Shown: positions 1-12,853 of the stretch, piece after piece
How the letters are laid out: every line of letters begins with the position of its first letter
Position numbering within the stretch: the first letter of the stretch is position 1
Translations under genes and position numbers: made by a program
NCBI GenBank assembly: GCA_001192655.1
Contig: BBVC01000061.1
Span: 1-18,125 of the forward strand
DNA: 18,125 nt
Reading direction: 5' to 3'
Source: Caedimonas varicaedens
Lineage (GTDB): Bacteria > Pseudomonadota > Alphaproteobacteria > Caedimonadales > Caedimonadaceae
Notes under the pieces: model-generated
The model's database searches: none
Told to the model about the DNA's origin: nothing
The model's input: only the letters and a program-made list of their open reading frames with translations

Positions 1-41
1 ACAGATAAAACACGAAGTCTAAAATCTAATGAATAGGTCAT
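1..41 (-). mobile_element. Possible 5' end of an IS630/Tc1-mariner-like transposase ORF running off the left edge of the window
   Basis: A minus-strand ATG at 41..39 stays open to position 1 and reads MTYSLDFRLRVLS. The xYSLDxRxRV opening is what I know from IS630-family transposase N-termini. Only 13 codons are visible, so this is weak. Confidence 0.3.
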
Positions 42-90
42 GGAATAATCCTCTTAAAAATTATCCATAATATAACCATTTTAAAGGTTT

Positions 91-306
91 TTAGCTATAG
101 AATCCAATATAGGGGTAACATCCCTCCGCAGGACTTTCAATTTTTCTATTTCCTTCCTGAACGCGGTTAAAAGCTTCCCGAATGCTTTTGACGCTGTGAT
201 TATAAAGTTTTTTTAAATGTTCAATGGCATCAGAGGCCGAAGAGAACTCTTGAACAAAGCGAATATAGGTCTCGCCTTCCTGCAGATCATACGATACTTT
301 TTGCAT
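91..306 (-). pseudogene. 71-aa stub resembling the N-terminus of AMP nucleosidase, apparently truncated
   Basis: ORF track 91..306(-). SDAIEHLKKLYNHSVKSIREAF...CYPYIG aligns by eye with the E. coli Amn N-terminus (AQALDKLDALYEQSVVALRNAI...FVYPSL). Full-length Amn is several hundred aa. Here the frame stops after 71 codons, about 50 nt from the putative IS630-like ORF start. Confidence 0.4.
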
Positions 307-437
307 CCCTTTTCCTTTTGCTTTCCGATTTTTATTTTTAATTTAATATCATAACTGATTCTTATGATAAACTTTAATAAAAGTGTTGCATTCCAGCACT
401 ACTTTATCTGAACAGAAGGAATAAGAACGTCACCATC

Positions 438-466
438 TTGACAATGAAGTCGACCATTTTTAACCT
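438..466 (+). promoter_or_regulatory. Candidate sigma70-type promoter for the lipoprotein gene
   Basis: TTGACA at 438..443, a 17-nt spacer, then TAACCT at 461..466 (3/6 match to TATAAT), about 40 nt upstream of the ATG at 505. This is a motif match only. Confidence 0.3.
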
Positions 467-504
467 TACCTGGTGAATACATTATTGAAAAGGAATCATT
501 ATCA

Positions 505-765
505 ATGAAAATAACCCCTCTTTTAACTCTGGTTGCCCTGTTGAATCTTGCGGGATGTGAGTGTATGAAGCCCAACGACCCGAACTGGGATCGTGAGTGT
601 CAGAGAAATTACAGTGAAAACTCCTATGAACTTGCGGCATGTAAGGAAAAAATCGAAAAAAACAAAGATTTCCGTAATGAGGCTGGAACAATCGGCATTG
701 TCCCTGACAATGTCAATCGTCCTGCAACAGATCAACTCCGTAAAGATCACAACGTCGGAAATTAA
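505..765 (+). CDS. Small Cys-rich lipoprotein (86 aa)
   Basis: The N-terminus MKITPLLTLVALLNLAG|C has a classical lipobox (L-A-G-C). The mature part carries further Cys residues (CEC...C...C). A strong intrinsic terminator follows. Confidence 0.65.
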   Translation: MKITPLLTLVALLNLAGCECMKPNDPNWDRECQRNYSENSYELAACKEKIEKNKDFRNEAGTIGIVPDNVNRPATDQLRKDHNVGN

Positions 766-788
766 AAACGCTCTTTATCAAATATCTG

Positions 789-817
789 GAAGGGCAATAT
801 TTGCCCTTCTTTTTTTA
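789..817 (+). terminator. Rho-independent terminator after the lipoprotein gene
   Basis: GAAGGGCAA (789..797), loop TAT, TTGCCCTTC (801..809) form a perfect 9-bp stem, followed directly by a T-run (810..816). Confidence 0.75.
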
Positions 818-841
818 ATCTTTGTACATAAATGAAAAGAG

Positions 842-1768
842 ATGATGACGTTAAAATTAATCAAAAGTCTGTTGATAGGAGCAATTTTGACATTCAATAC
901 AATATCTGTACAAGGAAAAATTATGATCGCTCATAATATGTGCGAGGTTCAAGCTCAAGTTAATAAAGCTCTCAAAAAAAATAGACCTGAAGATATTCTG
1001 GTCGCTTTTGACATTGATATGGTTTTGACACAGCCTGATCATCCTGCCGTTTATTATCCCACCCTTATGAAATATGCAAAGGTCTATAAAAAAATCCTAG
1101 GCTCTCTTTCAGCTGAACAAAAAGATTTTGCGAATACACTTACCACTCAAAATTATCCTCAAAAATTTGTCGAAGAAGAAACTCCAGAAGTCGTTAAAAG
1201 GATTGAGGAAAAGGGTATAAAAGTGATCGCCTTTACAGCAACATTAACGGGGAAATTCAATAATACCAAAGATAAAATTATTGCTCTCAGAAGAGATGGC
1301 CTTCAAAAAAAAGGGCTGGATTTTACAAAATCTTTCAAGGAGTCAGCCCCTGTTATCTCTTTTACAGAGTTTCCTGCATATGCGAACTCATATCCTATGT
1401 TTGACCGGGGTATTCTGTCGTCTAATGGAGAAGGATTTACAACGAAGGGGCAGGTTTTATGTTCTTTTCTACAACATGTTGGCCTTAAACACAGACAACA
1501 AACAGGCAGTCCTGGTTATTTTCCCAAAGTTATCTTTTTAATTGATGACAGAAAGAAAAACCTTGAGGATGTAGAAATAGCTCTTAAATCCTGTAATGAT
1601 TCCATTGAATTTGTAGGACTTGAATATCAGGGCGCCTTTTCTTACGCACCTCAGGATATTTCAGAAGAAGACTTTGAAAAATTTTGGACAGCTTTGGCTG
1701 AAAAATCTCAATCTGCCTTTGATTCTTCACATCAAATTTTGACAGGTTACCAAAGAAATGCACGATAA
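842..1768 (+). CDS. Exported HAD-superfamily-like hydrolase (possibly DUF2608-type), function unknown
   Basis: Signal-peptide-like N-terminus MMTLKLIKSLLIGAILTFNTISVQG. HAD motif I is LVAFDIDMVLT (DxDxV). A motif II-like IAFTAT, a later Lys and a motif IV-like FLIDDRKKNLEDV are also present. The family assignment is from motifs only. Confidence 0.6.
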   Translation: MMTLKLIKSLLIGAILTFNTISVQGKIMIAHNMCEVQAQVNKALKKNRPEDILVAFDIDMVLTQPDHPAVYYPTLMKYAKVYKKILGSLSAEQKDFANTLTTQNYPQKFVEEETPEVVKRIEEKGIKVIAFTATLTGKFNNTKDKIIALRRDGLQKKGLDFTKSFKESAPVISFTEFPAYANSYPMFDRGILSSNGEGFTTKGQVLCSFLQHVGLKHRQQTGSPGYFPKVIFLIDDRKKNLEDVEIALKSCNDSIEFVGLEYQGAFSYAPQDISEEDFEKFWTALAEKSQSAFDSSHQILTGYQRNAR

Positions 1769-2183
1769 TCCTGAACGGAATACTCTGTCTCCTAATTTTT
1801 GCCATAGCGGATTCAAACGCGCTCATGAGCTTGATAATGAAGCCAAAGAGCTTGGCTTTTATTGGCTTCATGCCGAGCAGATCCTCACTCAGATTTCCTC
1901 GGAAACACAGGAAATACGACAAGCCCTTGAGCAAAAAGAATCTTTGGAAAGAGTTACAGAGGAAATCGGAGATCTTCTGCACAGCGTGATGGGACTTTGC
2001 TATTTTCTCAATTTAAGCCCTGAAGCTATTCTCGAAAGTAGTTTGAATAAATTTGAAAAGCGTTTTAGTATAGTGAAAGAATTAATGACTGCCCAAGGAT
2101 TAAAAACCCTCAAGGGGAAAACCCATGAAGCCTTAGCTCTGTGGGAAGAAGCAAAAAAAGCTGGTGCCGCCGGAGAGGATTGA
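1758..2183 (+). CDS. MazG-family nucleoside triphosphate pyrophosphohydrolase (single MazG domain)
   Basis: ELGFYW...ETQEIRQALE...EEIGDLLHSV...NKFEKRF...LWEEAKK matches the MazG pattern (GFDW, EExGDLLF, KFxxRF, WeeaK). The start overlaps the stop of the upstream ORF (ATGCACGATAA). The last 22 nt overlap the tRNA-Thr gene on the opposite strand. Confidence 0.8.
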   Translation: MHDNPERNTLSPNFCHSGFKRAHELDNEAKELGFYWLHAEQILTQISSETQEIRQALEQKESLERVTEEIGDLLHSVMGLCYFLNLSPEAILESSLNKFEKRFSIVKELMTAQGLKTLKGKTHEALALWEEAKKAGAAGED

Positions 2184-2236
2184 ACTCTCGGCCTCACCCT
2201 TACCAAGGGTGTGCTCTACCACTGAGCTACGACGGC
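2162..2236 (-). tRNA. tRNA-Thr (anticodon GGU), CCA encoded
   Basis: The reverse complement folds by hand into a cloverleaf. Acceptor GCCGTCG/CGGCGGC (one G-U pair), D arm GCTC-AGTGGTA-GAGC, anticodon arm CACCC-TTGGTAA-GGGTG, variable loop AGGCC, T arm GAGAG-TTCAATC-CTCTC, then A-CCA. Total 75 nt. Confidence 0.95.
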
Positions 2237-2291
2237 AGACAAATTAAGTGTTAGATTTATACGAAGGCTTATCAAGATTCAAGGTTCAAAA

Positions 2292-2444
2292 ATGGCAGAT
2301 TTGAAAAAAAACCTCAAACTCATAAAAATGCAGCGCCGCGCCCAAGCCCTGCGGGAAAACTTGAGAAAAAGGAAAGCTCAGAAAATGGTGCGTGAGGAAT
2401 CCAAAAACGAAGATACTTCCGACGAAACAGACAATAGCAAATGA
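2292..2444 (+). CDS. Small basic protein (50 aa), conserved-hypothetical type
   Basis: ATG at 2292 to TGA ending at 2444, below the ORF-track cutoff: MADLKKNLKLIKMQRRAQALRENLRKRKAQKMVREESKNEDTSDETDNSK. The AxALRENLRxRKAQ core resembles small conserved proteins I recall from other alphaproteobacteria. It ends 1 nt before the DUF167 start. Confidence 0.5.
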   Translation: MADLKKNLKLIKMQRRAQALRENLRKRKAQKMVREESKNEDTSDETDNSK

Positions 2445-2445
2445 T

Positions 2446-2728
2446 ATGGCGTCAGCTCCTTTTAGTCTCGCTTCACATGGGTTTTATCTTGCTATTTACC
2501 TAACGCCTCATTCAAAACGAAACGCCCTGGGACCTCTTTATTACCGATCCTTCAGGCAAAACTTATCTTCGTGCTTTTGTGACGGCTGTGCCCGAAGATG
2601 GTAAGGCAAACCAGATATTAATCAAGCTTGTCGCCAAGACTATGAAGCTTCTCAAGTCTTCTGTCATGATCGTATCAGGGCACGCCGGTCGTCGTAAGAT
2701 GTTGGAAATTCAAGGTACAACAGATTGA
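2446..2728 (+). pseudogene. DUF167 (YggU-family) gene interrupted by a +1 frameshift
   Basis: The frame from ATG 2446 gives MASAPFSLASHGFYLAIYLTPHSKRNALGPL and then runs into nonsense and a stop at 2604. The next frame gives ITDPSGKTYLRAFVTAVPEDGKANQILIKLVAKTMKLLKSSVMIVSGHAGRRKMLEIQG up to the TGA at 2726..2728. Together these match the DUF167 pattern (xPxAxRN...lkvxvtApPxDGKAN...ksxvxivxGxxsRxK). Removing one T from the TTT at 2537..2539 restores a 93-aa ORF. Confidence 0.75.
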
Positions 2729-2773
2729 TCTGGAAAAGATTAAAAATTTCATTTTTCCTATACTCAAAGGATT

Positions 2774-3100
2774 TTAAAATGTGTACAGGCGGATGAGTGG
2801 TGAGTCTTCACGCAGCGTACATAAAGTACGTAAGCAGGGGCGAATCCCGAAGTCCAACGACCCCAGATTTTGAAAGGCACAGGGTATGAAGGCGGAAGCC
2901 TCAGATGCGGAAACCATCTGACAATATGTTTTGCAACACTGCCGAATAGAGCGCTTATAGCTCACGGATAAGGGCTCTTCAGACTTCACGATCCTCCATA
3001 CCGTCGGAATGGATATACCTGTACGGCGGCTTACTCCTTTGATATTTTCACACTGGCGATATAACCCCCTGATCTTCCTTCGGCTTTCCATAATCAACAT
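2774..3100 (-). mobile_element. Remnant of an IS transposase N-terminal helix-turn-helix (IS21 IstA-like by eye, family unresolved)
   Basis: ESRRKIRGLYRQCENIKGVSRRTGISIPTVWRIVKSEEPLSVSYKR fits the ExRRxIxxLxxxGxSIxxIaRxxGISRxTVxxxlxxxxP...YxR opening of IstA-like transposases. The remaining ~55 codons have no recognisable transposase core (no DDE region), so this is a truncated or decayed copy. Confidence 0.45.
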
Positions 3101-3222
3101 CTCCCCATTTATCTCCTACCTTCTTAATCATCAGCAGAAGTATAATTTGACAAAAATGGATTAACACCAGAGGCGGAATTTATACCTAAAAGGGGGTAAA
3201 ATTTTCAACGCGAATTAAAAAC

Positions 3223-3253
3223 TTGACAGATCTTCCTCAATATGATCTATATA
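3223..3253 (+). promoter_or_regulatory. Candidate promoter for the OTU-like gene
   Basis: Perfect TTGACA at 3223..3228, followed by TCTATA (17-nt spacer) or TATATA (19-nt spacer) around 3246..3253. If used, transcription starts downstream of the first in-frame ATG (3242), which favours ATG 3284 or 3302 as the true start. Confidence 0.35.
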
Positions 3254-3301
3254 AAATATTGTTTATTAAATTCTCATTATAATATGTTAACCTTCTTGAC
3301 A

Positions 3302-4771
3302 ATGTTAAACTCACGTTTTTTATTCGCTTTATTAACTTTTTGTTTTATGCAGCCTCCTGCTTTTGCTTCAAATAGTAAAGATGAGGAAGAAATAGTCGCT
3401 CGTTTCAAGTGTTCTGATAAAGGAGATTTGATAGGAGATGATTACTTTATACGCCGCGAGTTCTATATGACAGGTGACGGTAATTGTTCCTTATACTCTA
3501 TGGGTACAACTTATGCAGAAGCTCACCATCTTTTTCTTGAAAATTCCAATAATCCAATTATTCGTGATTTAGCCCATCAGGAAATTGTGGATGAATTTGA
3601 TAATTTGCACCCTCAAATGAAAAGCAAAGAAAATTATATTGATTTAAAAGATGCTTTGGCAAATATTCACGAGATACTGTCTTATATTCTGATTGATGCT
3701 GTTGAGTATAGGCAGGAGGTGCTTGCTGAGGAAGAGCAAGCAAGGCAAAACATTATCGCTTATGCAAAATTAGAAGAAACCTACAGGGATTATGTAAATT
3801 ACGTACTCATCGATGGGCGTAATATGCTCTTCCGACAAGATGTAGGAAATCATCAAGGTACCTATTTTATTGATGCTCTCGCTTACATTCTCAATAAAAA
3901 CTTAATTATCTGGTCACAAGTTGATGTTATGACCCAACAAATTCTTGCAACCCGCCCGCTTGAGATGGAGTATGATACTCTACTGGTGCGCTCTCATGAG
4001 TATAGGAAAGAGGGAGCCAATGAAACTCTAGAGATTATTCATCGAGGTAACCATTTCAATCGTCTTGTGCGAACAGATAATCAATCGGAATTAGAAAAAG
4101 CTGTGGAAGATGAACGCACTTCTATTGGCTGGCAACTCCAGAAATTTACAGAAGAAAAGTCGCAACTTCAAGCGTTTCTAATAGCATCTGCCAACGAGGA
4201 AGATATCGCTCAATGTTATGATGCATTTATTTTGCCGTTCATCAAAGAACTTGCTTTAAAGGGTATAGTTGATGGCTATTACGCCAAAGCGCCTAATTGG
4301 TCATCTTATGCTGCCTTAAAAAAGGCATTAAAAAGTGAGGCGGGTGTGAATTTTCAGGATCCGGTTAGTCTATTGCGTAGATATCTTCCTGCTGCTGCGA
4401 ATCCTCTCTTTGTCCAATTAGAACCTAAGGCTGGGAAGGAAGAGGCTGAGTGTCAACGTATAGCAGTCCAACAACAGCGTGAGACAGAGGAACAACGTCA
4501 AGCCCGAGCTCAACAGGCAAGACAAATGCTCGCAGAATCAGATCTAGCTCAATTTTATAATGGTTTTGCTATTCCAATCATGAGAGATCTGGTACAACAG
4601 GGTAGATTACATGCGTATTACATAACTGCCCCTGGTTGGTTATCTTATGAAGCATTAAGAGTTACATTCCCAGGTGCCGATTTTAGTGATCCAGTTGTTT
4701 TCTTCCGCAATACCGCCAATCGTCATATTGTTGCGGTCGCTCTCGAGGAGGCACTTTACAACGCCAATTAA
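3302..4771 (+). CDS. OTU-family cysteine protease-like protein with N-terminal signal peptide and a duplicated C-terminal module
   Basis: The longest ORF is 3242..4771, and alternative ATGs lie at 3284 and 3302. From 3302 the N-terminus MLNSRFLFALLTFCFMQPPAFA|SNS looks like a Sec signal peptide. OTU motifs are the Cys loop TGDGNCSLYS (Cys codon 3485..3487), a central GTYFIDALAYILNKNLIIW, and the His loop LEIIHRGNHFNRL (His codon 4052..4054). Two ~60-aa repeats lie at 4202..4384 and 4541..4714. Confidence 0.75.
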   Translation: MLNSRFLFALLTFCFMQPPAFASNSKDEEEIVARFKCSDKGDLIGDDYFIRREFYMTGDGNCSLYSMGTTYAEAHHLFLENSNNPIIRDLAHQEIVDEFDNLHPQMKSKENYIDLKDALANIHEILSYILIDAVEYRQEVLAEEEQARQNIIAYAKLEETYRDYVNYVLIDGRNMLFRQDVGNHQGTYFIDALAYILNKNLIIWSQVDVMTQQILATRPLEMEYDTLLVRSHEYRKEGANETLEIIHRGNHFNRLVRTDNQSELEKAVEDERTSIGWQLQKFTEEKSQLQAFLIASANEEDIAQCYDAFILPFIKELALKGIVDGYYAKAPNWSSYAALKKALKSEAGVNFQDPVSLLRRYLPAAANPLFVQLEPKAGKEEAECQRIAVQQQRETEEQRQARAQQARQMLAESDLAQFYNGFAIPIMRDLVQQGRLHAYYITAPGWLSYEALRVTFPGADFSDPVVFFRNTANRHIVAVALEEALYNAN

Positions 4772-5011
4772 CAACTTTGGGAGACAAACACGTCTGCGGG
4801 CGTCAAGCAGCTCAGCTTTCAATGCTCGGTCGAAGGGTGCGAGGCCAAACTGATCACCCATAATTTCAGTCTTTATTCAGGAAGTCTTCAAGAGGCACGC
4901 TTTCGCCTTTACCCCTATGAGCTGCATACTCATCCGCGGAAAAATTTCAAATCCAGACGATCGTGATATTTTTTGGATATAGGATCGACAAGTTTAAGAG
5001 GAATATTTATT

Positions 5012-5971
5012 TTAAATTTTTAGGCTCGAAACCATGCCTGTTTCAAGTCTTGCCATCTTTCCCATGAATAGCGGTTTATTGACGCGATCATGGCCATATC
5101 CAGGCATTTTAAAAACGGGTACAGAAACACCTGCAGCAAAATATTTTAGGACATACTCAAGTTTAGAAGGATCTTCGGGAGTGTGTTCAGGAGTATAACT
5201 ATAATCTCCAAATAAAATGGCCTCGACGCCGTTAAAAAGTCCAGCTTGTAGAAAATGTTCAAGTCGCTCGGCAATGCGATAGGCTTGCTCATTCACATCT
5301 TCCAAAAAGAGAATTTTTCCTCGACAATCCAGCTGCCAGGACGTTCCGATACTATATTGCAGGACTGAATGATTGCCACCCACAAGAGGCGCTTCGATAA
5401 TGGCGTGTTGTCGAGCAAGATCATTCAAGGGTATGAGATCGGTTTCTTCTATTGCTTTCCTGTAACCTAGCAAAATATCTTTCAATGCTTGCATTGAAGA
5501 AGGTGTAACCCGTTGAGCGACAAGATCGCGTAGATTAGGAGCATGGAGCGTTGGCCAATTCCATTCCTGAATCAAAAATGTATGCAACGCCGTTACGTCA
5601 CTAAAGCCAATGAGAAGTTTTGGTGGAGGGACAGAAGCCAGACTACGTGACCACTCGAAAAGCCTGGGAATCAGGCGTGTTGCTCCGCATCCGCCGCGCA
5701 AGACCCAAACTGCTTTGGAGTGAGATGAGGAAAGCGCCAGAGAAAGATCTTTGAAACGCAATTCATCTTCATTTGAATAAAGGGGGTGAGGGGGCGTCGA
5801 TTCCCAGAAAGGCTGTACATGGGGTACCAGTTCCCACGATTTAAGCAGTTTTATGGATTTTTTAATATCATCCCCGGAAATAGCGCTAGAAGGTGCGACC
5901 AGTTCAACGCGGTCTCCTGGTTTGAGGGTAGGGATGAGGGAGACTTTCCTAACCATCGGCATTTTTGGCAA
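5012..5971 (-). CDS. ldcA: LD-carboxypeptidase (muramoyltetrapeptide carboxypeptidase, peptidase S66)
   Basis: S66 hallmarks are present: VLRGGCGATRL (cf. RGGYG), IGFSDVTALH (nucleophile Ser), LFLEDVNEQAYRIAERL (Glu), and PGYGHDRVNKPLFMG (His). The 5971 start is a TTG, with ATG alternatives at 5962 and 5956. Every option overlaps the atpC stop. Confidence 0.85.
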   Translation of the reverse strand: MPKMPMVRKVSLIPTLKPGDRVELVAPSSAISGDDIKKSIKLLKSWELVPHVQPFWESTPPHPLYSNEDELRFKDLSLALSSSHSKAVWVLRGGCGATRLIPRLFEWSRSLASVPPPKLLIGFSDVTALHTFLIQEWNWPTLHAPNLRDLVAQRVTPSSMQALKDILLGYRKAIEETDLIPLNDLARQHAIIEAPLVGGNHSVLQYSIGTSWQLDCRGKILFLEDVNEQAYRIAERLEHFLQAGLFNGVEAILFGDYSYTPEHTPEDPSKLEYVLKYFAAGVSVPVFKMPGYGHDRVNKPLFMGKMARLETGMVSSLKI

Positions 5972-6365
5972 TAATCTGGAGTTTTATGTTGGCAAGATGT
6001 AAATCGCGGTGCAACGCTTCCTTCTCTTCCGTGGAACGGGCGATTTCCAGTTCTTCAAGTTTTTCTCTGATTATGCTTTCAAGCTCTGTCTTATCAAAAT
6101 CCTGTAGAAAGATACAATCTTCTGCCATCACAGTGCAACCATTCTCATTCACATTTGCAAATCCGCTTCCCACATAAATTCGATGAAGGATAGCCCCATC
6201 CTGGTAAATATAAACAAGTCCGGGTCTTAAAGTTGAAAGGAGTGAAGCATGACGGGGCAATACACCGAAATCGCCTTCTTGTCCTGGAATGACCGCCATG
6301 CTGACAGGAGCTTCAAACACCAGCTTTTCGGGAGAAACAAGCCTAAAATCCAATTTATCTGTCAT
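5949..6365 (-). CDS. atpC: F1 ATP synthase epsilon subunit
   Basis: 138 aa. FRLVSPEKLVFEAPVSMAVIPGQEGDFGVLPRHASLLSTLRPG is the typical epsilon N-terminal beta-sandwich signature. It is the last gene of the atpHAGDC order. Confidence 0.9.
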   Translation of the reverse strand: MTDKLDFRLVSPEKLVFEAPVSMAVIPGQEGDFGVLPRHASLLSTLRPGLVYIYQDGAILHRIYVGSGFANVNENGCTVMAEDCIFLQDFDKTELESIIREKLEELEIARSTEEKEALHRDLHLANIKLQIIAKNADG

Positions 6366-6379
6366 TCGGGTTGCCTATC

Positions 6380-7825
<1,446 letters not shown>

Positions 7826-8713
7826 TTAAAGCGCTTCGGCGCCTGAAACAATCTCAATAAGCTCTTTGGTAATAAAAGCCTGACGTGTTCTATTATAGGT
7901 TAAATCAAGATTTTGAATCATTTCTTCTGCGTTACGGGTTGCGCCATCCATTGCCGCCATTCTTGCACCTTGCTCACTGGCAACATTTTCCAGTAAAGCT
8001 CTAAAGATTTGGATCCTCAGATTTTGAGGTAAAAGTTGCGTCAAGACCTGGTTTTCCGTTGGTTCATAACAATAAGGTACAAGAGATTTGTTGTTCTCAG
8101 CGGACAATAAGAGCGAAGAATCAAGAGGCGTATAAGGAATCAAACGATGATCTGTTACTTTTTGTGTAAGGGCAGAAATAAACTTGTTATAAACAATTGT
8201 ACAGATATCAAATTCATTTTTTTCAAATATTTCAAGCATGTATTGTGATACGTTGGAAGCATCAGAAAAAGACGGCTTATCGAGAGCCTCGAAAGTCGTG
8301 ATAATATATTTTGAGTAGTCCCGCTTAAGTTGGTCATATCCCTTGCGGCCTATGCAAATGATCTTAATATCCCGCTTACGTGTTTCTTCTTCCTGAATCA
8401 TATGACGAACATGTCGAATAATGGATGTATTAAACCCGCCACAAAGTCCTCGATTTGATGTTGCTGCAATGATAAGATGCGTTTTTTCCTGTCCTGTCCC
8501 GCCGAGAAGTTTCGGTGTCATGCTGGAGTTGGTTATTCTTGAAATAAGATCACCCAACATTTCTGACATCATCATCGCATAAGGACGCGCGGCCTGGGCG
8601 TGTTCCTGTGCGCGGCGCAGTTTGGCAGCTGCAATCAATTTCATTGCGGACGTAATTTTTTTTGTTGCTTGAACCGATTTCTTGCGTGTCCGTAATTCCT
8701 TAAGACTTGGCAT
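7826..8713 (-). CDS. atpG: F1 ATP synthase gamma subunit
   Basis: 295 aa. N-terminal MPSLKELRTRKKSVQATKKITSAMKLIAAAKLRRAQ and C-terminal ITKELIEIVSGAEAL are gamma-subunit hallmarks. It is positioned between atpA and atpD. Confidence 0.95.
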   Translation of the reverse strand: MPSLKELRTRKKSVQATKKITSAMKLIAAAKLRRAQEHAQAARPYAMMMSEMLGDLISRITNSSMTPKLLGGTGQEKTHLIIAATSNRGLCGGFNTSIIRHVRHMIQEEETRKRDIKIICIGRKGYDQLKRDYSKYIITTFEALDKPSFSDASNVSQYMLEIFEKNEFDICTIVYNKFISALTQKVTDHRLIPYTPLDSSLLLSAENNKSLVPYCYEPTENQVLTQLLPQNLRIQIFRALLENVASEQGARMAAMDGATRNAEEMIQNLDLTYNRTRQAFITKELIEIVSGAEAL

Positions 8714-8734
8714 TTTGGAGTGACCTACCCTTGT

Positions 8735-10264
8735 TTAAGTAAAAATAGTGGTAAAGTGTTCAAGAAATTTAACCAGTTCTCCTTCATGCTGGGTGGAAAT
8801 CTGCCCTGTCTCTTTGATCGTTTGTAAAAGGGCAGGTTTTCTCTGACGCAATTCTGTAAACATTTCCTGCTCGTAACGTTGAATATCCGCAACGGGAACC
8901 TTATCTAAATACCCTCGTGTTCCGCAGAAAATCGAAACAACCTGCTCTTCCCGAGATACAGGAGAATACTGGGGCTGTTTCAAAAGTTCTGTCAGCCTCT
9001 CGCCGCGCGCAAGCAGTTTTTGGGTGGCAAGATCAAGATCAGAAGAAAATTGTGAGAAGGCTGCCATTTCCCGAAATTGAGCCAACTCCAGTTTGATCTT
9101 GCCGGCGACTTGCCTCATGGCTTTTGTTTGAGCAGCGGATCCCACACGGCTTACGGATAAGCCCACATTAATGGCGGGGCGGACACCTTTATGAAATAAA
9201 TCTGTTTCAAGAAAGATTTGTCCGTCTGTGATGGAAATCACATTGGTAGGGATATAGGCTGAGACGTCACCAGCTTGCGTTTCAATAATAGGAAGAGCTG
9301 TCAGCGATCCTCCTCCCTTTTCATCACTCATTTTAGCCGCTCGTTCCAGCAGCCGGGAATGAAGATAGAAAACGTCTCCAGGATAGGCTTCACGTCCAGG
9401 AGGGCGGCGCAAAAGCAACGACATTTGACGATAGGCTACTGCCTGCTTTGAAAGGTCATCATAAATAATCAGGGCATGCATGCCGTTATCACGAAAGTAT
9501 TCACCCATGGAACATCCCGCATAGGGCGCCAGGAATTGCAGGGGAGCCGGATCAGAAGCTGAGGCAACCACAACCGTCGTATAGCCCAGTGCTCCATGGA
9601 CTTCCAACGTCTTGACGATTTGGGCGACGGTTGATAGTTTTTGACCAATGGCAACATAGATGCAATAAAGCTTTTCCGATTCTGTACCGCCATCATGCGC
9701 ATTTTTCTGATTGAGGATTGTGTCAATAGCGATAGCTGTTTTTCCTGTTTGACGATCACCGATGATAAGCTCGCGTTGTCCTCGTCCAATAGGTACAAGC
9801 GTATCAATCGCTTTCAGCCCTGTCTGCATGGGTTCGCAAACTGACTGACGCGGGATAATGCCAGGAGCCTTGACTTCTACGCGGGAACGTAAGGTAGTTT
9901 TGATCTCTCCTTTGCCATCCAATGGATTTCCAAGGGGATCGACGACGCGACCTAACAATTCCTTCCCAACCGGCACATCCACAATGTTCCCCAGCCTTTT
10001 AACGCTTTCTCCTTCCCGAATATTTCGATCATTCCCAAAAATCACAATACCCACATTATCGGTTTCAAGGTTTAGCGCCATTCCCTGAGTGCCATCGGAG
10101 AATTCAACCATTTCTCCGGACTGGATATGTTCAAGCCCATAAACCCGTGCAATGCCATCGCCGACTTCCAGGACTTGCCCTACTTCAGCAAATTCAGTCT
10201 CAGCATTAAAATTCACAATTTTTTTCTTTAAAATAGAAGAAATTTCCGCAGCGCGTAGTTCCAT
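8735..10264 (-). CDS. atpA: F1 ATP synthase alpha subunit
   Basis: 509 aa. Walker A GDRQTGKT, and the overall alpha-subunit sequence character throughout. Confidence 0.98.
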
Positions 10265-10269
10265 CGGTT

Positions 10270-10803
10270 TTATGCCCTCATCGCTTTTTGCAGTTTATGG
10301 AGTTGTGTCCGGATCGTCGAATCAACGACATATTCGCCAATTTGGATGACAATGCCCCCTATGGCTTCTTTATCTCTTTTTTCATGAATAACAATTTCTT
10401 TTTTCAGCTTTGATTTTAAGAGGCTTGTTAAGGATTTCAGCTGATTTGTACCAAGGGGCATTGCTGAAGAAATGTGAACGTCCACTCTATTGGATTGAGC
10501 ACGAAGCAAGTCTCTAAAACGCTTTATAATATCGCTCAGATTTTTTAGTCTTTTCTGATGAGCAACCAAGTCAAGAAAATTTAGAGTCAATGGGCAGAAT
10601 AACAACTTTTCGGATAACACTCTAAAAACGACTGTGACAGCTTTTAAAGGGATCAGGGGATTGTCCAGAAATGTGTTAAAATCTTTTGAAGTGGAGACAA
10701 TATTCTGAAGTGCAGCAAGATCTTGCTCTACCTCATCCAGTTTTTCTTGTTCAGAGGCGCATTCAAACAAGGCCTGGGCATATCGTACTGCAATTATACT
10801 CAT
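10270..10803 (-). CDS. atpH: F1 ATP synthase delta (OSCP) subunit
   Basis: OSCP-type N-terminus [14 protein letters not shown]. The ORF track extends to 10833, but the ATG at 10803 has a GGGGG RBS 7 nt upstream. It is the first gene of atpHAGDC. Confidence 0.88.
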
Positions 10804-11006
10804 CCATGAACCCCCGGAATGCTTGAAATACAAGCTTTTTCATTTCTCCAGAAATTTATTCTGTTTTTCAGATGTTTCTAGCACGACTTCAAACATTCAG
10901 CAAGAATGATGTGCTATTTGCTCTTTTTTGCACTGTGGTTTGCATGGATTTTCTTTTTGTGGTTTTCTATAAAACCTAAAGCATCGAAAGAAGTATAGAA
11001 AAGAAA

Positions 11007-12422
11007 ATGAAGTTTATCATATTTTTGTGGAGCATCTTTTTTTCTTCTATACTCTATGCAATTCCCATGAATGATAAAAGTGGTCTTAGCCTAACTGAAG
11101 TAGATCAAATCATTAAAATTTCTGAAAACTCAAGTATTGAGGTGCTGCAAAAAGTTATTAGAGAGGCAAGAAAAAACAACCAGAAGGTTACTGTTTATGG
11201 ATCTCAACATACTCAAGGAGGGCACATATTTTATAATCAGGGGATCATTCTGAATTTATCTAATCTAAATAATATTCAAAGACTTTCTCAAAATATTATA
11301 CGCGTTCAATCAGGAGCGACATGGAAACAAGTGATTGAATTCTTAAATCCTCTGGGGTTGTCTGTGGATATTATGCAATCAGATTATGATTTTAGTATGG
11401 GCGGGACTCTTTCAACAAATGTTCATGGATGGCAGGTTAATAAACCGCCTCTTATTGCAAGCATACGGGGTTTCCATATTCTTATGGCAGATGGAAGTGT
11501 ACGATATTGTAATCGTCAGAAAAACACAGATCTTTTTAAAAGCGTTATTGGTGGTTACGGACTTTTAGGCGTTATTATTGATGTTGATTTGCATGTGATC
11601 CATAACCATCTGTATGAACTAAAACAATGGGTTATTAAGACAGAAGATTTTCTTCCTTTTTTTAAAAAAGAAGTGCAAGGCAATAAAAAAGCAGCCATGT
11701 TTTTTGGAAGATTTTCTCTTGATCGCAAAAATTTTTTAAGGAAAATAGCTTTTCGTATTTATGAAGATACAGAACAACAGGCAAAAAATCAGAAACTTTC
11801 TGAATATCGTTGGGTACAAAGTATTTTAAACTGGTTTTTTTCTAAAACGCGCAAGAGCGATTTTTTAAAAAAAGTGAGATGGGAAATCGAAAATAATTTT
11901 TTAGCGGAGCGATTATTCAAATCACTCTCACGTAATCAACTTTTGTACCATTCTGTTGATAATTATATAAATACTCAAGAAGGGTATACAGATTTATTGC
12001 AGGAATATTTTATTCCTATTGAAAATTTTGAGAAATTTATTTTTTCCCTTCGTTCTCTGGAAAAAGACATGTCAGATTATTTAATGAATATTACAATTCG
12101 TCATGTGCAAAAAGATAATGAAAGTCTTTTGAACTATGCTCCCCAAGAAATGGTGTGTTTTGTCATGTTCTTCCGTGGCCCCAAAACGAAAGATTTTGAC
12201 AGAAAGCTGAGTCTTATGGCTCAAAAAATGACGGATCAGGCTTTGGTATTAAAAGGCTCTTATTATCTTCCTTATCGCCCTTATCAAAGTAAACAACAAT
12301 TTGAAAAAGCCTATCCTCGATGGAGAGAATTCAAGAATATAAAATTAATTTATGATTCTTCAGAAGTATTTTTCAATCAATTTTATGAGAATTATTTTGG
12401 TGAAAAATTAAAGCAGGATTAA
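11007..12422 (+). CDS. Exported FAD-binding (PCMH/FAD_binding_4-type) oxidoreductase, substrate unknown
   Basis: 471 aa. Hydrophobic signal-like N-terminus MKFIIFLWSIFFSSILYA. FAD-binding motifs are VYGSQHTQGGH and ADGSVRYCNRQKNTDLFKSVIGGYGLLGVI. The gene is visibly AT- and Lys-rich relative to the flanking operons. Confidence 0.7.
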   Translation: MKFIIFLWSIFFSSILYAIPMNDKSGLSLTEVDQIIKISENSSIEVLQKVIREARKNNQKVTVYGSQHTQGGHIFYNQGIILNLSNLNNIQRLSQNIIRVQSGATWKQVIEFLNPLGLSVDIMQSDYDFSMGGTLSTNVHGWQVNKPPLIASIRGFHILMADGSVRYCNRQKNTDLFKSVIGGYGLLGVIIDVDLHVIHNHLYELKQWVIKTEDFLPFFKKEVQGNKKAAMFFGRFSLDRKNFLRKIAFRIYEDTEQQAKNQKLSEYRWVQSILNWFFSKTRKSDFLKKVRWEIENNFLAERLFKSLSRNQLLYHSVDNYINTQEGYTDLLQEYFIPIENFEKFIFSLRSLEKDMSDYLMNITIRHVQKDNESLLNYAPQEMVCFVMFFRGPKTKDFDRKLSLMAQKMTDQALVLKGSYYLPYRPYQSKQQFEKAYPRWREFKNIKLIYDSSEVFFNQFYENYFGEKLKQD

Positions 12423-12499
12423 ATAATATATTATCAAAATCAAATGGTTGATGTGATAGATAAACAGGAACCATTTTCCTCGGACAATTACTTAATGCA

Positions 12500-12853
12500 C
12501 TAAATAGTAAGCCATGTGGTTTCATTATTTGGAAAAACAATAGAAATAACCCCACCCCACGCACACGGAACCATTGATAAGTTATCCAGCGCAGGCATGC
12601 CATTTATTAAAACGGTAGGATCGCCGATCATCCATGGAGAAACAGGTGCTGGCATACAAGGAATAGGAAGGCCTACTTCTGACAATATTGCGCAAATCCC
12701 CATAGGCGTAAGATTAAGATCAGGAACAACATCCATGAAGTGACCAGCCGGCATAGCCTGAACAAGGACATTTACTTCAGGCAAAGCGTCAAACATCAGC
12801 ATAGATTCACCACCCGCACACATCAAGAAACCACCCGTAACTGTTTCAAGCAT
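12500..12853 (-). CDS. DUF4280 (PAAR-like) domain protein
   Basis: 117 aa. LMCAGGE...MPAGHFMDVVPDLNLTPMGICA...PCMPAPVSPWMIGDPTVLINGMPALDNLSMVPCAWGGVISI follows the DUF4280 pattern I know (C-x-G, N-I-x-P-F-G-x-C, P-C-x-P, W, G-x-P-A-L, C-x-W-G-G-x-I), including four conserved Cys. An AGGGGA RBS lies 8 nt upstream. The start is 24 nt after the petC stop. Confidence 0.8.
   Translation of the reverse strand: MLETVTGGFLMCAGGESMLMFDALPEVNVLVQAMPAGHFMDVVPDLNLTPMGICAILSEVGLPIPCMPAPVSPWMIGDPTVLINGMPALDNLSMVPCAWGGVISIVFPNNETTWLTI

Follow-up and report, generated by a model that had tools for sequence, protein, structure and literature searches.

A gene of a Caedimonas genome predicted to encode a signal peptide-bearing, divergent member of the OTU superfamily of cysteine proteases

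A stretch of 18,125 nucleotides of contig BBVC01000061.1 from Caedimonas varicaedens (the whole of it hereafter referred to as the window) carries, at positions 3302–4771 of the forward strand, a gene that a preliminary description had put forward as a candidate deubiquitinase of the OTU fold. The analysis presented here supports the view that this OTU-like gene encodes a Sec signal-bearing member of a divergent, unannotated branch of the OTU superfamily, with a helical insertion resembling that of the Legionella Lot enzymes and a duplicated C-terminal tail, in an endosymbiont of protists. A deubiquitinase or ubiquitin-like protease acting on host or surface-bound conjugates is the function that we favour, albeit with some reserve. 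Bacterial OTU effectors are already known; what would be new here is the export route, the lineage and a family without a curated model. The features of the gene and its product are listed below, residue counts being out of the 48 family members described further on.

3242..4771, forward strand: maximal open reading frame (ORF) of 509 amino acids (aa), the sole long ORF of the region (ORF list).
3302..3367, forward strand: predicted Sec-type signal peptide, residues 1–22, from a heuristic analysis of n-, h- and c-regions, with cleavage expected after AFA.
3380..4132, forward strand: predicted divergent OTU-superfamily catalytic domain, residues 27–277, delimited by the block conserved in seven close homologues, the family profile and the structural model.
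3476..3487, forward strand: Cys loop D59-G-N-C62, with Cys in 48/48 and Asp59 (Cys-3) in 37/48; in the model the Cys lies at the N-terminal end of a helix.
3554..3802, forward strand: helical insertion, about residues 85–167, placed by the model between the Cys-helix lobe and the variable loop and kept in close and distant members.
3857..3913, forward strand: central element G186–W204, GTYFIDALAYILNKNLIIW, comprising the end of the variable loop, a helix and the first core strand, with D191 in 43/48, A194 in 43/48 and W204 in 35/48.
4052..4060, forward strand: His loop H251-F252-N253, in which all 48 members have the His followed directly by Phe or Tyr, and 33 of them have Asn or Asp one place further on.
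4190..4396, forward strand: C-terminal module copy 1, residues 297–365 (self-comparison, BLASTP).
4397..4528, forward strand: charged linker rich in Glu, Gln and Arg, residues 366–409 (translation).
4529..4735, forward strand: C-terminal module copy 2, residues 410–478, followed by the last 11 residues (self-comparison, BLASTP).

A homologue search with the protein returned seven relatives, including the 98%-identical protein encoded at the sister-strain locus L001, a metagenomic contig of 45 kb, and a hypothetical protein of Caedimonas varicaedens. Residues 27–277 are common to all seven, and the sequence beyond them is completely different. When a profile of this block was run against 1.84 billion cluster representatives, 76 clusters were matched at E ≤ 1e-3 and 18 at E ≤ 1e-30. 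The domain family is small and carries no annotation. A word-index homologue search with the 48-sequence alignment yielded nine proteins and no new names, and a scan of a genome collection with a narrow alignment found two loci only. The family alignment comprises 48 complete domains with a mean column identity of 20%, and its only invariant columns are Cys62 and His251. R88, found in 46 of the 48 members, and I95, both within the helical insertion, are nearly invariant. Comparison of the 17 close-clade members with the 31 distant ones using hhalign gave a probability of 100% and E=7.9e-48 over 198 columns that include the helical middle part, which argues that the alignment represents one coherent family and that the profile has not drifted or been contaminated. 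Two members, P0016 (292 aa) and P0021 (295 aa), consist of little beyond the domain, and in distant members the domain sits C-terminally or internally. One of the family proteins, P0020 (locus L006, 6693–15523), has a DUF7024 region and is flanked by two more DUF7024 genes (1,056 and 391 aa), which look like a local cluster of paralogues.

In order to relate this family to enzymes of solved structure, the 48-sequence profile was compared with 177,635 PDB sequences. The best matches were to the OTU domains of nairovirus L proteins (E=1.8e-8, 2.1e-8 and 2.5e-6), followed by more viral OTUs (vOTUs) at about 1e-5, OTUB2 (3e-5) and OTUD3 (1e-4), with OTUD5, OTUB1 and EschOTU lower; all matches with E<0.1 are OTU enzymes. 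The three OTU motifs noticed in the preliminary description are borne out by these alignments, in which the Cys loop, the central element and the His loop come in the right order and in register with the solved OTUs. The Cys loop is aligned by HMMER to 'PGDGDCFFH' and 'PGDGNCFYH', which hold the DGDC or DGNC of nairovirus OTUs, and the His loop to 'LLHTG.THF..L' and 'NHFDAL'. The proposed parallel between the central GTYFIDALAYILNKNLIIW and the OTU element 'WGG..EL.A..I.V' likewise holds, since the HMMER family profile aligns the former to 'TLEASMLAKEMGITIIIWT' of the nairovirus OTU domains. The two catalytic codons are where they had been placed: the Cys codon at 3485–3487 is TGT and belongs to GDGNC (Cys62), and the His codon at 4052–4054 is CAT and encodes the second His of HRGNHFN (His251). 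Sequence comparison points to a remote relationship to OTU enzymes. Peptidase_C65 (otubain) is touched by eight of the 48 members, in every case below threshold (best E=0.0013), and a profile of six sequences gave chance or sub-threshold matches only in the PDB. Searches of PHROGs and PADLOC with the protein found no match, so that nothing suggests a phage or defence-system protein.

The domain was modelled with AlphaFold2 from the 48 sequences, with a predicted local distance difference test score (pLDDT) of 96.1 and a predicted template modelling score (pTM) of 0.91; an earlier run with six sequences (pLDDT 69, Cys loop disordered) is superseded by this one. Positions in the model follow domain numbering, in which Cys36 corresponds to Cys62 and His225 to His251. 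The N-terminal half is predicted to form a two-strand hairpin, a helix at 36–40 that begins with Cys36, and helices 45–54 and 59–71. It is followed by a helical block (78–81, 84–102, 108–129 and 132–141) and a 20-residue loop, after which come the 'DALAYIL' helix, four strands, the last of which (225–231) begins at His225, and a C-terminal helix. As modelled, this order of elements is that of a canonical OTU plus a helical insertion of about 80 residues before the variable loop. A Foldseek search of the PDB pointed towards the fold suspected in the preliminary description, in that the first 13 matches are all OTUs, among them LotB/Ceg23, the Farallon and Taggert virus OTUs, OTUD1, OTUD2, Cezanne, yeast Otu1 and LotA. 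These matches score low, however, with E between 1e-2 and 0.26, probabilities of 0.96 at most and template modelling (TM) scores of 0.2–0.35 relative to the query and of 0.48 at best relative to the target. LotB/Ceg23 is the top match (probability 0.91), and the Farallon vOTU has a probability of 0.96 and a TM-score of 0.48 on the target. In the search against viral models, five of the best six matches carry an annotation as OTU domain or ubiquitinyl hydrolase and come from giant viruses; the list is headed by a herpesvirus ORF without annotation (E=4.5e-4) and includes, lower down, the L protein of a nairovirus.

With canonical OTUs (nairovirus vOTU, OTUB2, OTUD1/2/3/5 and yeast Otu1; PF02338/PF10275) the putative domain shares the D-G-N-C loop leading into a helix, a strand that opens with His-aromatic-Asn/Asp, the central helix-strand element and the order of elements, and it has an N-terminal hairpin as in vOTUs. 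It differs from them in size, about 250 residues against about 130–180, on account of the helical insertion of about 80 residues. Unlike them, the OTU-like protein carries a predicted signal peptide, is bacterial (Holosporales) and, as a single sequence, scores below the Pfam cut-off. The all-helical lobe before the variable loop, modelled here at about residues 85–167, recalls by its position that of the Legionella Lot enzymes (LotA, LotB/Ceg23, LotC and LotD). In LotA the OTU1 fold is made up of residues 7–90 and 200–276 and the lobe of residues 91–199; the 'roof-like' topology of the lobe defines the Lot group, and the lobe has been implicated in ubiquitin binding at the S1 and S1' sites (PMC10133868). 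By analogy, the helical insertion of the present family is likely to be a surface for substrate recognition. No Lot chain was found among the PDB sequence matches at E up to 10 with any of three profiles, for which reason the likeness to Lot is better described as one of architecture than as membership; by sequence the family profile is nearest to vOTU and OTUB2, not to Lot. Lot enzymes are moreover substrates of the Dot/Icm type IV system without an N-terminal signal peptide, whereas the OTU-like family appears to carry one. The Sec-type signal and the alphaproteobacterial origin would thus argue against the status of a Dot/Icm effector.

Other bacterial OTUs show a similar mixture of likeness and difference. 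Those characterised by Schubert et al. in 2020 (ChlaOTU, wMelOTU, RickOTU, BurkOTU and EschOTU) are all predicted type III or type IV substrates, and the term 'signal peptide' does not occur in the text of that study (PMC7396840). They are, as the present domain may be, host-associated effector-type domains that have the active-site motifs in common and otherwise very low similarity (PMC7396840). In those enzymes the Cys loop rests on a conserved basic residue, of which R88, present in 46/48, may be the equivalent in the OTU-like family. EschOTU is circularly permuted, whereas the domain studied here is in canonical order. EmcB/CoxDUB of Coxiella and other Legionellales offers a parallel as a divergent OTU offshoot that was missed by sequence annotation and recognised through structure prediction (PMC12501173). 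Membership of the EmcB/CoxDUB group was considered and rejected, since EmcB is permuted with its Cys helix at the C-terminal side (PMC12501173) and here Cys62 precedes His251.

Three lines of evidence connect the family with ubiquitin-type chemistry. The residue right after the catalytic His is aromatic in 48 of 48 members, and an aromatic residue at this position is strongly enriched in deubiquitinases and other Gly-Gly-cleaving proteases relative to other cysteine proteases, where it acts as gatekeeper for Gly75 (PMC7391069); the link to ubiquitin is strengthened accordingly. It is further strengthened by fusions of relatives to U-box and F-box domains. In P0067 the domain is followed by a U-box and ankyrin repeats, and in P0070 by an F-box and ankyrin repeats; a third protein, P0066, combines Mob1, a protein kinase and the domain. 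The gene for P0067 is located on a bacterial contig, where its neighbours are ankyrin, LRR and TIR/NB-ARC genes. Contigs rich in such genes are the usual look of amoeba-associated bacteria. Taken as sequence evidence, the gatekeeper, the fusions and the neighbourhood support a role of the family in the ubiquitin system.

Assignment of the start codon bears on the N-terminus of the protein. The ATG at 3302, the third in-frame one of the maximal ORF, gives a product of 489 aa, and a start at the ATG at 3284 gives one of 495 aa; the translated product likely begins at one of these two. In 3242–3301 all three substitutions relative to the 98.9%-identical L001 locus are non-synonymous in the frame of the ORF, which is a weak hint that this segment is non-coding and that the start is at 3284 or 3302. 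No convincing ribosome-binding site was seen at any of the three starts, and a consensus scan for a promoter or terminator near the gene found nothing above chance. The stop codon is TAA at 4769–4771.

Starting from 3302, the N-terminus has the layout MLNSR / FLFALLTFCFM / QPPAFA|SN, that is, one basic residue, an uncharged hydrophobic h-region of 11 residues and Ala at -3 and -1. The preliminary description had seen here a cleavable Sec signal or a membrane anchor, and the former is what our analysis favours: the n/h/c layout is recognised by the heuristic, and the segment is conserved in full-length close relatives. In our reading, a membrane anchor would need a longer hydrophobic core, and LTFC does not qualify as a lipobox. 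The signal call was made with a home-made n/h/c heuristic, not with SignalP. Under a stricter rule, in which the h-region must be at least 10 residues long and begin by residue 15, the OTU-like protein, cytochrome c1, the FAD oxidase and the DUF2608 protein are flagged among the proteins of the window, and no cytosolic one is. Other 19-residue stretches of the OTU-like protein have a mean hydropathy of at most 1.24, so there is no second candidate membrane span and the mature protein looks soluble. An equivalent N-terminal segment was found in every full-length member of the close clade that was read, including those at Caedimonas sp. and Alphaproteobacteria metagenome-assembled genome (MAG) loci and P0081; examples are MTKKINKFLITCSFLSLMPMASKVSA|S and MKKKITSLLITSSFVVFCATGAVFA|S, and MRNSKKYFLLTASFFSLASLMPAKA|S was read from a longer protein clustered with an entry that looks truncated. 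Because of this conservation the signal segment appears to be a trait of the family and not a quirk of one gene. At L001 there is an in-frame deletion of 9 bp within the h-region of the OTU-like gene.

These features suggest that the OTU-like protein is exported by the Sec pathway. At one family locus, the gene for the 1,497-aa close relative P0010 (L005, 5063–12494) is divergent from an adjoining ATPase and platform pair, the T2SSE (with an MshEN domain) and T2SSF genes, which points to a possible link of signal-bearing family members to a type II or type IV-pilus-like machine. A consistent linkage of the family to type II secretion genes was rejected, as the P0010 locus stands against three others without such genes. 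A functional analogy may be proposed with TssM of Burkholderia, a type II-secreted deubiquitinase that reverses the ester-linked ubiquitylation of lipopolysaccharide (PMC10719079, PMC10371091): TssM is exported through Sec and the type II system and is active in the host cytoplasm, including at the bacterial surface (PMC10719079, PMC10371091). TssM has the USP fold, however, and not that of OTU. Bacterial deubiquitinase effectors other than TssM are described as dependent on type III, IV or VI secretion (PMC10719079).

The C-terminal region of some 210 residues had been described as matching nothing recognisable. Indeed, there is no Pfam match, but the region is not featureless, its last 190 aa being a tandem duplication of a lineage-restricted module of about 65 aa whose two copies are 39% identical over 61 residues (BLASTP, E=3e-16). 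A hidden Markov model (HMM) of the module found it in the immediate lineage only: in P0001, the near-identical sister-strain protein, which has both copies, in a 112-aa fragment, in P0085 and in P0002. At the end of two other proteins, one of which is P0085, the module occurs with 83–92% identity. P0085 (251 aa) has a different N-terminal region and likewise begins with a signal peptide, and P0002 is chimeric and keeps only the His-loop end of the catalytic domain. We also considered whether the module is common to the whole clade; this was rejected, given that the HMM matches the immediate lineage only and that BLASTP against the C-terminus of P0005, the next relative, found no similarity to the module. 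Tails of other close-clade members consist of Ala/Gln/Lys repeats, extremely basic Lys/Arg tails, private tandem repeats, or regions that lack any Pfam domain and reach 1,200 residues. Basic tails (with KVKTKKVKTRKVK repeats, for example) or Ala/Gln/Lys repeats resembling histone H1 are seen in P0022, P0024, P0025, P0027, P0028, the ORF at 5785–9465 of L002, P0003, P0004 and P0007. Nucleic acid, membranes or the nucleus are possible binding targets of such Lys/Arg-rich or Ala/Gln/Lys tails. The combination of an unchanging catalytic head and interchangeable tails would fit an enzyme that owes its location or its partner to the tail.

Upstream of the OTU-like gene are the transposase fragment, the broken DUF167 gene, tRNA-Thr and the MazG and DUF2608 genes; downstream and convergent is an LD-carboxypeptidase (S66) gene with the ATP synthase operon, and then come the FAD oxidase, DUF4280 and the cytochrome bc1 operon. 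The features of the locus that are referred to here are:

842–1768, forward strand: DUF2608 gene (E=1.4e-20), with a signal-peptide-like N-terminus MMTLKLIKSLLIGAILTFNTISVQG.
2162..2236, reverse strand: tRNA-Thr(GGT) (ARAGORN), at the edge of the segment common to the window and L001.
2446–2735, forward strand: broken DUF167/YggU gene with a frameshift near 2541 (merged translation, PF02594, E=4e-19).
2774..3100, reverse strand: transposase fragment with ISL3-type helix-turn-helix, a 108-aa ORF directly upstream of the OTU-like gene (Pfam HTH_Tnp_ISL3, E=1.5e-5, sub-threshold).
12500–12853, reverse strand: DUF4280 gene (E=5.9e-16), between the FAD oxidase and the cytochrome bc1 operon.

Positions 2162–12769 of the window are 98.9% identical to L001, and the match stops exactly at the 3' end of tRNA-Thr(GGT). 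Past the tRNA, L001 (1–6922) holds about 6.9 kb of prophage-like genes (AAA_24, a DEAD-box helicase and DUF6511), and the window (1–2161) holds the DUF2608 and MazG genes, so that the boundary looks like a tRNA-associated integration site. The OTU-like gene falls in the segment common to both strains, outside the prophage-like element of L001. The 'IS debris' of the preliminary description can be kept in part. There is a transposase fragment with an ISL3 helix-turn-helix, but the match is sub-threshold (24.8 bits against a cut-off of 27.4; PHROG transposase, E=0.0018) and consists of a single 108-aa ORF; the fragment differs from that of L001 by indels of 10 and 11 bp, which suggests that it is non-functional insertion sequence (IS) debris. 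In L001 (about 7205–7495) the DUF167 frame is restored but interrupted by a stop, which results from a T-to-G change at the site matching window position 2619. The differing lesions in the two strains point to ongoing decay of this gene beside the intact OTU-like gene. In the latter we count 10 non-synonymous and four synonymous changes relative to L001, or seven and four without 3242–3301, and four of the seven amino-acid differences downstream of the ATG at 3302 lie within the helical insertion. In neither strain is the 1.47-kb frame interrupted, the residues invariant in the family are kept and the sole indel is in-frame; as DUF167 is broken in both strains and the OTU-like frame is open in both, we argue that the latter is maintained by selection.

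Base composition adds little to this picture. The gene had been described as more AT-rich than the flanking operons, and its G+C content (0.397) is indeed below that of the ATP synthase genes, but it is above that of three other genes of the window and not anomalous. Recent horizontal transfer, as far as it would be deduced from base composition, was rejected, as the G+C content of the gene equals the window mean (0.403). Variation at the locus is seen in a further genome, GCA_041442895.1, where a 56.7-kb contig with an identical AtpD and the same synteny carries, beyond S66, a 346-aa gene with a weak Peptidase_C1 match followed by a TPR+Secretin gene and transhydrogenase genes; there is no OTU-like gene there. 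Two different papain-like genes thus occupy the junction beyond S66, which marks it as variable in close relatives. The DUF2608 protein is another apparently exported protein without an annotated function near the locus. DUF4280 is, we presume, a PAAR-like domain of the type VI spike tip, and would then fit the type VI system reported to be widespread in Holosporales.

Among named sources, the closest relatives of the protein come from Caedimonas varicaedens, from a MAG of Caedimonas sp. and from unclassified MAGs of Alphaproteobacteria; Caedimonas belongs to the Caedimonadaceae within the Holosporales. Holosporales, an old lineage of wide distribution, are obligate symbionts whose protist hosts, among them ciliates and amoebae, harbour them in the cytoplasm or the nucleus (PMC11909080), in keeping with the host-associated bacterium that the preliminary description had supposed. 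In a review of the group, the mechanisms of host interaction are called poorly understood, the main candidate secretion route is a non-standard type VI system and the word 'ubiquitin' is absent (PMC11909080).

Put together, these data suggest the following course of events. The signal peptide (residues 1–22) would take the protein across the inner membrane. Residues 27–277, as modelled, would fold into a cysteine protease domain of papain-like type that belongs to the OTU superfamily and has the corresponding chemistry, in which Cys62 would be the nucleophile and His251 the general base, with Asn253 probably orienting the His. Phe252 stands where other deubiquitinases have the residue that limits their substrates to those ending in Gly-Gly, and the two modules of about 65 aa on their charged linker would most likely direct the enzyme to a place or a partner. 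A Caedimonas-like symbiont would be in direct contact with the cytoplasm or nucleoplasm of the protist. Once past the outer membrane, or held at the cell surface, the enzyme could cleave conjugates of ubiquitin or of ubiquitin-like modifiers, whether attached to host proteins or to the symbiont surface, and this hydrolysis would blunt ubiquitin-dependent responses of the host.

Several observations weigh against this interpretation. The full protein, searched alone against Pfam, NCBIfam and the PDB, gave nothing significant; the domain alone matched Pfam OTU with E=0.053 and 14.5 bits, the cut-off being 23.3; and a profile of the 17 closest relatives produced sub-threshold OTU matches only in the PDB (E 0.06–0.5). 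A crude signal rule without limits on length and position also flags short hydrophobic stretches in cytosolic proteins, and no secretion system was found within the window. Short-term constraint on the gene appears to be slight, judging by the 10:4 (or 7:4) ratio of changes between the strains, although the numbers are small. The profile check proposed in the preliminary description therefore came out in two ways: the single sequence is below the Pfam OTU cut-off, and the 48-sequence family profile is significant (E=1.8e-8 to 1e-4). Since the single-sequence match is not significant, it is on the family profile that the OTU assignment rests.

Other explanations were weighed against a ubiquitin-directed protease. 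The product might be an exported papain-like hydrolase of the OTU fold with a non-ubiquitin target, either an envelope or periplasmic substrate or a host protein on which it would act as protease, deamidase or acyl-transferase. A Sec signal alone delivers to the periplasm only, the match to canonical OTUs is remote, and the genome with the identical AtpD, GCA_041442895.1, has a different papain-like gene with its weak Peptidase_C1 match in the same position. We nevertheless find this explanation rather unlikely, in view of the aromatic residue after the catalytic His in all 48 members, so strongly enriched in Gly-Gly-specific proteases (PMC7391069), the fusions of relatives to U-box and F-box domains, and the occurrence of the family in host-associated lineages and on contigs rich in eukaryote-like genes. 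The tail-to-tail position next to the LD-carboxypeptidase of peptidoglycan recycling might also be read in its favour, but the two genes are convergent and so do not form an operon. The catalytic signature predicts cleavage directed at Gly-Gly and not which modifier is cleaved (PMC7391069), which leads to another explanation, namely an enzyme of the ubiquitin system other than a classical Lys-isopeptidase: one acting on a NEDD8, SUMO, ATG8 or ATG12-type modifier of the protist host, or a TssM-like esterase acting on the symbiont's own lipopolysaccharide. EmcB-family relatives of OTUs cleave ubiquitin, NEDD8 and ISG15 substrates (PMC12501173), type II-secreted TssM removes ester-linked ubiquitin from lipopolysaccharide (PMC10719079, PMC10371091), and export by Sec would bring an enzyme into a good position to act at the bacterial surface. 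Tested bacterial OTUs, however, are ubiquitin-specific with one exception (PMC7396840), and the sequence indicates neither a particular modifier nor a preference for esters; we consider a specificity of this kind unlikely.

Much less probable is a protease that acts in cis and sets free its own variable C-terminal part (in this case the region with the two modules), which would then be the actual effector. Such a role would suit the build of the family, in which the protease at the N-terminus is constant and the regions behind it, of up to about 1,200 residues, vary greatly, and viral OTU and papain-like domains, which process polyproteins, provide a precedent. The alignment, however, has no conserved Gly-Gly-like junction after the domain, P0016 and P0021 offer little else than the domain, and its C-terminal or internal position in distant members does not fit such a scheme. 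The least credible explanation is a decaying remnant without functional product in an eroding endosymbiont genome. What recommends it is the state of the neighbours, with DUF167 broken and the transposase fragment affected by indels, together with the high ratio of non-synonymous to synonymous changes relative to the sister strain (10:4) and the chimeric P0002, in which just the His-loop end of the domain is left. This is outweighed by the 1.47-kb frame, which is open in both strains with its invariant residues and an in-frame indel only, by the flanking DUF167, inactivated in both strains by different lesions, and by the very confident fold prediction for the domain. A deubiquitinase or ubiquitin-like protease is therefore the explanation that we retain as the most likely.

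A bolder proposal, to which we would give a modest chance, is that the OTU-like protein and its close relatives represent a new class of OTU deubiquitinases that leave the cell by a Sec-dependent route (type II-like, in vesicles or by surface display) and not through injection systems. They would serve the Holosporales symbionts of ciliates and amoebae as a core tool for erasing ubiquitin-type marks in the cytoplasm or nucleus of the host, possibly at the symbionts' own surface, with swappable tails, either tandem modules or histone-like basic ones, as address labels. If this were true, protists would already possess a ubiquitin surveillance of intracellular bacteria, and the bacteria counter-measures against it. 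Should the signal peptide prove real, the family would supply a Sec-dependent OTU, next to bacterial deubiquitinases that depend on type III, IV or VI secretion. The family is invisible to the models of Pfam and NCBIfam, and the 48-sequence alignment could seed a new family model. Were the activity absent, the protein would still be an example of an OTU-like fold put to other use in the bacterial envelope. For the study of Holosporales, the gene provides a concrete effector candidate with a predicted chemistry.

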